Source: a virus (lineage: Duplodnaviria > Heunggongvirae > Uroviricota > Caudoviricetes). Taken from it: a DNA stretch of 10,435 nt. A program made the position numbers and the translations under genes. The DNA lies in IMG/VR virus record IMGVR_UViG_2671180556_000023, positions 1 to 10,435 of that record. One strand, written 5' to 3'. Positions 8,578 through 9,340 of the stretch are shown here, one piece after another; the stretch's first letter is position 1, and each line of letters begins with the position of its first letter. The notes beneath the pieces were generated by a model that worked only from the letters and a program-made list of their open reading frames with translations, searched no databases and was not told where the DNA came from.

Positions 8578-9162
8578 TTAAAGAATATAACTTGCAGTTA
8601 TTATCATCACAGTATTGAAAAGTTCCATTAGATAAAAAATATCGCTATTTTTTAAGGTGTCGCTAGATATTATTATTATATCTGTACTATCGATTTTTGT
8701 AGATACTTTAAAGTAACTTATTAATGTTAGTTGTGATAATGTGACTTCATCTAATGCAAAAATTATCACAGTATCACATTTGACGGTTTTTATAAATTCC
8801 AACTCCGCAAGATGTGGATATGTTATTTGAGTTTTAGGTAGGACTGTTTTTCCTCCGCCCTCATAAACTTTAGCACCCATCCTATCTAATTTTTGTTTTA
8901 TTTCTTCTATGACTTTTAAAGTTGCTTCATCATCAATTTCTTTGTTAGGATAACAAAGTAATATGTTATACTCTGCAGATACAAATTCTTCTTTTAAAGA
9001 GCTTCTTATCTCATCAATTAGAGAGTTTTTTATTGCATTTGTATCAATGTGAGGACTATTGGCATTAACAATGACTTGCGTGATAATTGTCGTATTGTTC
9101 TTACCCACGACAGTAGACTTTATGTTTTGATCAACATTTTGAGATTTATTATTTTCCATCAT
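8578..9162 (-). CDS. 194-aa hypothetical protein, candidate retron effector; possible flavodoxin-like (TIR/NDT-like) core
   Basis: Long open frame in AT-rich DNA. First ATG is at 9162 (MMENNK...); the ORF-track start at 9195 is TTG; neither has a clear Shine-Dalgarno. The pattern EYNILLCYPNKEIDDEATLKVIEEIKQKLDRMGAKVY resembles the beta-alpha-beta start of TIR or nucleoside deoxyribosyltransferase-like folds; this is impressionistic. Confidence 0.55.
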   Translation of the reverse strand: MMENNKSQNVDQNIKSTVVGKNNTTIITQVIVNANSPHIDTNAIKNSLIDEIRSSLKEEFVSAEYNILLCYPNKEIDDEATLKVIEEIKQKLDRMGAKVYEGGGKTVLPKTQITYPHLAELEFIKTVKCDTVIIFALDEVTLSQLTLISYFKVSTKIDSTDIIIISSDTLKNSDIFYLMELFNTVMIITASYIL

Positions 9163-9340
9163 CTTGTTTAATATTTGTTGTGTTACCCCATCCAAAATTA
9201 AAAACCTTAGCGATCTTTTGGGTGCCGGTTTTTATTTTTTTTCTAAATATTAATGCTGTGATGGCTAATACTATAAGTGATATGGCATAAACGCCAATAC
9301 CAGAGAAAACCCATTCTGCATTACTATGTAGCCACGTCAT
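9149..9340 (-). CDS. 63-aa small membrane protein (single predicted transmembrane helix)
   Basis: ATG at 9340, 9 nt after the integrase stop; hydrophobic helix WVFSGIGVYAISLIVLAITALIF followed by a basic stretch RKKIKTGTQK; overlaps the next ORF start by 14 nt in another frame. No clear Shine-Dalgarno. Confidence 0.45.
   Translation of the reverse strand: MTWLHSNAEWVFSGIGVYAISLIVLAITALIFRKKIKTGTQKIAKVFNFGWGNTTNIKQDDGK

Follow-up and report, generated by a model that had tools for sequence, protein, structure and literature searches.

A conserved small membrane-protein gene overlaps the NDT-like effector gene of a type II-A2 retron cassette in a P4-like satellite prophage

Results and discussion

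Two overlapping genes in a retron cassette

Do two short open reading frames (ORFs) that overlap in different frames beside a retron reverse transcriptase (RT) represent two genes, or a single gene broken or joined at a homopolymer tract? We addressed this question in a stretch of viral DNA of 10,435 nucleotides (nt) (Caudoviricetes; positions 1 to 10,435 of IMG/VR virus record IMGVR_UViG_2671180556_000023), referred to as a whole as the window, in which an ORF of 63 amino acids (aa) with a membrane helix runs into an ORF of 194 aa on the minus strand. An earlier note on this sequence had placed the pair in a retron context, which is borne out by the neighbouring ORF matching the PADLOC retron model RT_II-A at about 1e-200, and had proposed that an indel or programmed slippage at an adenine run would fuse the two ORFs into one protein of about 250 aa. 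We find instead that the ORFs are most probably distinct genes, both belonging to a type II-A2 retron cassette, and not one gene broken at the A-run. The features on which this rests are as follows.

9149..9340, minus strand: gene for a 63-aa single-pass membrane protein, MTWLHSNAEWVFSGIGVYAISLIVLAITALIFRKKIKTGTQKIAKVFNFGWGNTTNIKQDDGK followed by the stop codon (ORF, conserved motif, substitution rates, hydropathy)
8486..9162, minus strand: NDT-like retron effector gene, 225 aa in intact relatives and frameshifted here (PADLOC NDT_II-A, alignment)
9149..9162, minus strand: 14-nt stop/start overlap ATGATGGAAAATAA of the small ORF and the effector ORF (sequence, homologous junctions)
9235..9242, minus strand: A8 run forming the Lys/Arg codons of the juxtamembrane patch R-K-K-I-K (sequence, run-length simulation)

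The readable effector ORF extends from 9162 to 8578, giving 194 aa from its ATG or 205 aa from a TTG at 9195, and lies in the +1 frame relative to the small ORF (9149-9340), with which it shares the 14 nt ATGATGGAAAATAA as originally described. The A8 run at 9235-9242 and the closure of the +1 frame by a TAA could likewise be confirmed, with the difference that the TAA is placed directly after the run, at 9232-9234; from there the effector frame stays open to the effector ATG, with 23 open codons upstream of it. We simulated runs of A6, A7, A9 and A10 at this position, all of which led to a stop after 35-44 residues. Fusion of the two frames was obtained only through a 1-nt deletion between 9163 and 9231, which yields an ORF of 253 aa.

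We compared 11 related loci from Superficieibacter, Pantoea, Pectobacterium, Proteus and metagenomes, some of them outside a P4 context. A scan of genome contigs with the effector profile gave two such loci, and the other contexts were gathered from contigs encoding individual homologues. Homologous cassettes had been expected by the earlier note to show either a single fused ORF or, were the fusion idea wrong, two genes each with its own ribosome-binding site. The small ORF (51-78 aa), the effector and the RT (491-515 aa) are separate in all 11 loci. Their junctions vary between overlaps of 17, 14, 11 or 1 nt and a 1-nt gap, the effector frame is offset by +1 in eight loci and by +2 in three, and in one locus (L006) the effector frame is closed three codons ahead of the effector ATG. 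The A-run is missing from five of the 11 loci (L006, L010, L013, L014, L015) while the basic patch RKKIK or a similar one is retained. Protein searches gave the same picture. Forty effector homologues with 42-100 % identity are 213-227 aa long and share an M(M)xNN N-terminus, bar partial entries and a few longer calls, and none of the 40 contains a membrane helix or module; the 37 homologues returned by a small-protein profile search are all 38-105 aa in length and none is fused. PGAP also annotates two genes in E. coli.

The initiation signals of the two genes differ. Both ORFs had been described as lacking a Shine-Dalgarno (SD) sequence, which holds for the effector ORF but not for the small ORF, which is preceded by a weak SD-like GAGAG, in place of which 10 homologous loci carry GAGG, GGAGG or AAGGA. 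The outcome set out as refuting a fusion, homologues with two separate genes, was therefore found, with a ribosome-binding site of its own only for the first gene. Because the effector ORF has no SD of its own and starts within the 14-nt stop/start overlap, ribosomes ending on the first gene would probably restart on the second. Translationally coupled genes with ATGA or TAATG junctions offer a close parallel, sharing the short stop/start overlap, the absence of an SD before the distal gene, the varying junction and the fixed gene order, although the classic overlap is 1-4 nt as against 14 nt here.

Genes with programmed frameshifts such as prfB (+1) and dnaX (-1) resemble the locus in their two overlapping frames and nearby homopolymer. 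They differ in that here we found neither a conserved slippery sequence with an open target frame, the stop following directly on a run that five of the 11 loci lack, nor a constant frame relation or a fused product among the homologues. It is very improbable that one membrane-anchored NDT-like protein has been split by an indel, or is joined via slippage, at or near the A8 run. Such a protein could draw on the 253-aa ORF created by a 1-nt deletion within 9163-9231, on the 23 open codons before the effector ATG, on the missing SD of the second gene and on the N-terminal fusions of the membrane module seen in other effector families (P0173, P0155, P0192). Against it, indels of one or two bases in the A8 run all meet stops, the run itself is not conserved, none of the 40 and 37 homologues is fused, the frame offset is +1 or +2 depending on the subfamily, and the effector start codon and N-terminus are conserved among homologues. 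A low level of ribosomal frameshifting at the junction would still be compatible with the sequence and counts to that extent against two strictly separate products. Taken together, the unfused homologues, the varying junction and frame, the non-conserved A-run and the truncation caused by run indels argue for two genes over a single gene dependent on slippage.

The small ORF is a conserved gene of the cassette

9245..9310, minus strand: transmembrane (TM) helix codons VFSGIGVYAISLIVLAITALIF, residues 11-32 (hydropathy scan; FSG-x-G core invariant)
9164..9208, minus strand: small-protein tail motif KVFNFGWGNTTNIKQ with the pattern h-h-x-h-G-x-x-N-x-x-x-h-x-Q (alignment)
9347..9351, minus strand: weak SD-like GAGAG, 7-11 nt upstream of the small-ORF ATG and overlapping the integrase stop codon (sequence)

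The 63-aa protein begins with a short N-terminus bearing the motif N-x-x-W-V-F-S-G-I-G-V, which leads into a TM helix; the basic patch RKKIK follows, and then a tail assigned to the cytosol. Its Kyte-Doolittle hydropathy peaks at 2.28 over residues 13-31, and the positive-inside rule predicts that the N-terminus lies outside and the tail in the cytoplasm. The ratio of nonsynonymous to synonymous substitution rates (dN/dS) of the small ORF, 0.09-0.20, indicates purifying selection and its motif is kept in 11 of 11 related loci, being retained at 30-40 % protein identity. Such substitution rates, combined with a motif shared by 11 loci, make the small ORF more than a chance reading frame, as the NDT_II-A match (5e-59) does for the larger ORF. 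That it is accidental, the approximately 200 nt between the integrase and effector genes being msr-msd RNA or a leader, is barely credible: type II-A1 retrons such as Retron-Sen2 do have msr-msd ahead of the effector gene, PGAP leaves the small ORF unannotated in two of seven E. coli genomes and the cassette is otherwise without non-coding space, but the region has a fold z-score of just -0.69 and no Rfam match, its conservation is of the coding type described above, and a canonical msr-msd with covariation was found at 8018-8172, so that the small-ORF region is ruled out as msr-msd. The small ORF is a real conserved gene omitted by current retron models. It is not mentioned in the main text of Mestre et al. 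2020 (PMC7736814), nor in the retron literature that we searched.

Relationship to known retrons

According to Mestre et al. 2020 (NAR, PMC7736814), type II-A2 retrons comprise an NDT gene and have their DNA-binding domain shifted onto the N-terminus of the RT, a description which matches the layout of the cassette. The likeness extends to a full-length match of the RT to RT_II-A (PDLC02940), an effector match to NDT_II-A (PDLC02929), an NDT-like gene directly upstream of the RT, a probable DNA-binding domain at the RT N-terminus, the change of frame between effector and RT, and an msr-msd with a1/a2 repeats. Differences are the small membrane-protein gene, present here in 11 of 11 loci, the position of msr-msd inside the annotated RT ORF and, in this copy, the frameshifted effector and an msd hairpin shorter by 39 nt. 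This system belongs to the type II-A2 class already catalogued and contains a conserved small membrane-protein gene.

Retron-Eco1 (Ec86, II-A3) and Retron-Sen2 (St85, II-A1) show the same pairing of a retron RT with a flavodoxin/NDT-like effector, although sequence similarity of the effectors is undetectable by HMMER against the PDB. The effectors of both carry a C-terminal winged-helix domain of their own, and we know of no membrane partner described for either.

A frameshift in the effector gene

8634..8639, minus strand: run of six T (six A on the plus strand), one fewer than the T7 of relatives, a 1-nt deletion (alignment with the three near-identical E. coli loci L001-L003)

The true frameshift of the window is this change from T7 to T6 at 8634-8639, not the A8 run, and it cuts the 225-aa effector to 194 aa. 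Each of the seven complete E. coli genomes with a near-identical cassette has T7. The deletion costs the effector its conserved last 48 residues: after ...KNSDIF in the alignment the window ORF diverges from the conserved C-terminus, and that C-terminus, LSNGTFQYCDDNNCK...KKIIQRKGGLLGY (49 codons, ending GLLGY before the stop), is intact out of frame at 8486-8635. The PADLOC NDT_II-A match of the readable ORF (5.4e-59) covers only positions 1-155 of the 199 in the profile. Addition of one T in a simulation restored a 225-aa effector ending 1 nt before the RT ATG.

The missing base may reflect a homopolymer error of sequencing or assembly in a strain which really has an intact 225-aa effector, or a genuine inactivating mutation of a toxic gene, and we place the error close to, if slightly short of, an even chance. 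An error would fit the T7 in all seven complete genomes, the fully intact out-of-frame C-terminus and the fact that this single base is the only difference between the window and the sequence H1 over 2.4 kb. Weighing on the other side, loss-of-function indels are common in the toxin genes of defence systems, and selection may be relaxed in this lineage, given that its msd hairpin has also lost 39 nt.

Fold and assignment of the effector

An AlphaFold model built with 20 homologues (mean pLDDT 73.6, pTM 0.67) gave the effector a five-stranded flavodoxin-like core and a long C-terminal helix, with the N-terminal 40 residues disordered (mean pLDDT of 36-52 for 10-residue blocks over residues 1-40 of the monomer model). 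Foldseek matches include flavodoxin-like proteins, the nucleosidase PpnN and the Retron-Eco1 effector chain 8qbl_E (E 2.4e-3). Two residues, E100 and E119, are invariant among the effector homologues. The flavodoxin-like call of NDT/TIR type made earlier thus stands at the level of the fold in both AlphaFold and Foldseek, with membership of the NDT superfamily plausible and short of proof, the NDT name resting on PADLOC naming and the shared, modelled fold. Several observations weigh against the assignment. CheY receiver domains and TIR domains share the fold with almost the same Z, Pfam gave no match up to E = 0.1 for the window effector ORF and no match to NDT families up to E = 1 for the intact homologues, and a sequence search of the PDB with HMMER returned nothing meaningful for the effector or its profile. 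For this subcluster, Mestre et al. 2020 (PMC7736814) attach a value of only P = 0.096 to the NDT call. Like its counterparts in other type II-A retrons, the complex of RT and multicopy single-stranded DNA (msDNA) probably keeps the effector in check until phage infection.

A membrane-module family and a possible split anchor

9076..9120, minus strand: effector N-terminal motif KSTVVGKNNTTIITQ, echoing the small-protein tail (alignment; disordered in the monomer model)

Alignments define a large family by the motif N-x-x-W-[VI]-F-S-G-I-G-V, a single TM helix and a basic patch. A HMMER scan of 1.84 billion representatives returned 2259 matches at E <= 1e-3 and 213 at E <= 1e-10, nearly all of them small stand-alone proteins of 53-110 aa, and the few longer members carry the membrane module N-terminally. 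In L017 a separate family member of 68 aa is followed by a gene whose product shares 40 % identity over 134 residues with one such fused protein (P0173, 345 aa), from which it follows that the module exists both fused and split. The earlier suggestion that helix and enzyme act together is thereby supported as an idea, through other effector families in which the module is fused or split. Tandem double membrane modules within one protein were also observed (P0078, 262 aa; P0080, 131 aa; P0079, 377 aa; P0177, 200 aa).

Distant family members overlap unrelated downstream proteins by 8-41 nt in four further loci (L016, 1554-2223; L017, 3501-4764; L018, 1787-2789; L019, 1351-2410). They are partnered with a protein of 162 aa, two proteins resembling Vpar_1526/PDC-S47 and a further protein truncated by the end of its contig; AbiH and a Pycsar system are among the neighbours. 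Among PADLOC candidates, the 63-aa protein matches positions 1-37 of the 203-position profile PDC-M43A at 4.6e-5 and longer members of the family match positions 1-59, while the downstream partners in L017 and L018 belong to PDC-S47 / Pfam PF28206 (Vpar_1526). PDC-M43A, PDC-S47 and Vpar_1526 are uncharacterised candidates with other C-terminal domains, whereas in the retron the module stands as a 63-aa protein of its own, with an NDT-like enzyme encoded after it.

The tail of the small protein is echoed by the N-terminus of the effector. In the window the tail KVFNFGWGNTTNIKQ corresponds to the effector head KSTVVGKNNTTIITQ, in L014 the pair is IKINNKGSKNKFKIEQ and ISIKNKGNGNTFNIIQ, and in L016 it is QRAGNDSNNYMADRDINI and QSAGDHSVNYMADGDINI. 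We found this echo in 15 of 15 split loci examined, consisting of the 11 retron loci and four of four unrelated loci (L016-L019), and in 10 of 13 loci tested it exceeds that obtained with shuffled tails (p <= 0.018). Identical residues of the echo mostly have different codons, which points to selection on the proteins rather than to a recent duplication of DNA.

Because of this echo, the positive-inside rule and the disordered N-terminus of the effector, we tentatively propose a split anchor in which the tail and the effector head pair as beta-strands, so that the effector is docked by the small protein at the inner membrane, a reading to which we give somewhat less than an even chance. Weighing against it, the motif is short and low in complexity, and the echo is weak in the clade of the window itself (shuffle p = 0.135 for L001 and 0.285 for L005). 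A broader proposal is more tentative again: the retron-linked protein would be a member of an undescribed split-anchor family (at least 2259 clusters at 50 % identity) in which the tail copies the N-terminal peptide of the following effector and pairs with it. Paired copies would hold diverse anti-phage toxins at the inner membrane, or release them from it, among them the NDT-like retron effector, Vpar_1526/PDC-S47 proteins and others, with fused and split forms interconverting in evolution. The retron would in that case be a four-part system of membrane adaptor, effector, winged helix-turn-helix (wHTH) RT and msDNA, in which msr-msd might also be read as a protein-coding linker in the RT ORF.

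Small membrane proteins with one or two membrane passes serve as effectors in type IV retrons, CBASS and Pycsar, and the small protein could accordingly be real and separate without being an anchor, acting as a second effector (a holin-like membrane disruptor), as an antitoxin or immunity partner of the effector, or as a sensor, in which case common oligomerisation or degradation signals could underlie the shared motif. The family member of L018 adjoins a PycTM gene, the module precedes very different downstream proteins, and tandem copies occur without an enzyme domain (P0078, P0080), all of which suit such a role. We nevertheless consider it unlikely, since fusion and fission with the downstream effector and partner-specific co-variation of tail and head point to direct physical coupling, and one helix of 22 residues with a tail of 30 is about the least from which a pore could be built.

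The RT ORF and its embedded msr-msd

7024..8484, minus strand: 486-aa ORF with a winged-helix-like N-terminal domain, a linker containing msr-msd and a retron RT domain (PADLOC RT_II-A)
8018..8172, minus strand: retron msr-msd non-coding RNA (ncRNA) inside the RT ORF (inverted repeats, covariation)
8161-8172, minus strand: a1 GTGCTGGCCTCA, a perfect 12-nt inverted repeat with a2
8018-8029, minus strand: a2 TGAGGCCAGCAC, which pairs with a1
8067-8095, minus strand: msd hairpin of a perfect 12 bp, 39 nt shorter than in most relatives (inverted repeat)

In intact relatives the effector gene ends 1 nt before the RT ATG (TAA-T-ATG). The RT ORF comprises a winged-helix-like part at approximately 8185-8484 and an RT domain at approximately 7027-7908. 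It matches RT_II-A over its full length (1.1e-200, residues 1-484) and RVT_1 at 2e-23, and retron RTs in the PDB align from about residue 195 (9e-38 to 5e-20). Its translation contains the retron RT motifs NAINH (NAxxH, region X) and VTG/VVTG (region Y). The extension of about 190 residues ahead of the RT domain gave weak matches of wHTH type (DEP 0.013, HTH_45 0.07, AspA 0.8). A search with the N-terminal 200 residues of the RT returned only partial proteins and one 202-aa Proteus ORF and is uninformative on fusion. That ORF (P0226, Proteus mirabilis, 15 contigs), a homologue of the N-terminal part of the RT ORF, continues across the peptide encoded by msr-msd and ends ahead of the RT domain; either a disrupted RT or a wHTH-linker ORF that is separate by nature could account for it. 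Separately, the cassette of E. coli E110019 (L003) has a 1-nt deletion near the RT 3′ end, equivalent to about position 7076, which leaves an annotated RT of 476 aa and is another homopolymer-type difference among near-identical cassettes.

The msr-msd sits between the N-terminal extension and the RT domain. An a1/a2 pair is present in 12 of 12 loci, approximately 314 and 495 nt into the RT ORF. RNAalifold predicted an a1/a2 stem, an msr hairpin with G-U pairs and a long msd hairpin, with 58 pairs in total of which 11 show compensatory changes, and the G-U pairs fit only the RT strand. Mean column identity of the region is 85 % between loci whose effectors are 42-57 % identical. The Rfam scan of the whole window gave no retron msr family and only P4 immunity RNAs. 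A position downstream of the RT was considered for the ncRNA and rejected, the RT stop lying 6 nt from the cohesive-end (cos) site and the downstream spacers of L006, L007, L009 and L010 being unconserved. Indels within msr-msd are of 3, 3 and 39 nt, the last of which removes part of the msd hairpin in the window and in two E. coli strains, giving an msr-msd of 155 nt in the window type as against 194 nt in the L001 type. Each of these indel lengths is divisible by three and the reading frame is uninterrupted in all loci, which suggests that one RNA may be both the template for reverse transcription and a coding linker.

The cassette occupies a defence hotspot of a P4-like satellite

6999..7017, plus strand: P4/P2-type cos cohesive-end sequence GGCGAGGCGGGGAAAGCAC (exact match, 0 expected by chance)
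9350..10435, minus strand: P4-type tyrosine integrase gene, cut by the window edge (Pfam Phage_int_M, Phage_integrase, Arm-DNA-bind_3)

The window represents a P4-like satellite prophage with an alpha primase gene, C4/isrK immunity RNAs, Sid-like and Delta-like genes and psu, the last giving a Pfam Psu match of 8e-89 in the flank of the cassette. Rfam matches above the gathering score to the C4 antisense RNA, isrK and c4-a1b1 at 3794-4079 on the minus strand mark a P4-type immunity RNA region and confirm the satellite backbone. The right end of P4 (11461-11624) is matched by 6835-6998 of the window at 92 % identity, and cos begins 6 nt past the RT stop codon, forming one border of the hotspot with the integrase gene as the other. 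The cassette is all of the sequence from cos to the integrase stop codon, 2.33 kb on the minus strand, in the order small membrane-protein ORF, NDT-like effector and wHTH-RT ORF, with msr-msd inside the last. The type II-A2 retron cassette occupies a defence hotspot of a P4-like satellite. Such hotspots were reportedly described by Rousset and colleagues in 2022. The cassette sits at that same location, from the cos/psu side to the integrase, and is one of many that can occupy it interchangeably.

Seven complete E. coli genomes hold the cassette at 99.6 % identity or more, annotated by PGAP as a 'retron St85 family' RT and hypothetical proteins. A Megablast search of the cassette against the phage collection gave no match. 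A promoter-like site lies in the integrase 3′ end at 9376-9403 on the minus strand (TTGAAA, 16 nt, extended -10 TG-n-TACAGT); as the promoter scan gave 10 sites against 12.3 expected from shuffles, and so no enrichment, this site is only a lead. Decayed remnants of the integrase 3′ end were observed upstream of the small ORF in L007, L012 and L015, even without an adjoining integrase gene, which hints either that the cassette promoter is located there or that cassettes are swapped by recombination within int. In a metagenomic locus (L012, 49-1461) the cassette adjoins a gene for a 470-aa Peptidase_U49 (Lit-like) protein in place of the integrase gene, indicating that the cassette moves between different defence islands.

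Conclusions

The overlap as such matters little, being an ordinary coupling junction in a catalogued retron class beside an A-run without slip-site function. For annotation or cloning of the cassette, it is advisable to regard the effector gene as one of 225 aa that carries a homopolymer frameshift at 8634-8639, and the small ORF as a real, conserved gene. What makes the locus interesting is the possible split-anchor module together with the msr-msd inside an ORF, the latter, with its indels in threes, raising the testable question of how one RNA is both template and message. If true, docking of the effector via the shared motif would account for the positioning or restraint of a cytosolic NDT-like toxin, and the split anchor would be a reusable adaptor found beside many other defence effectors.

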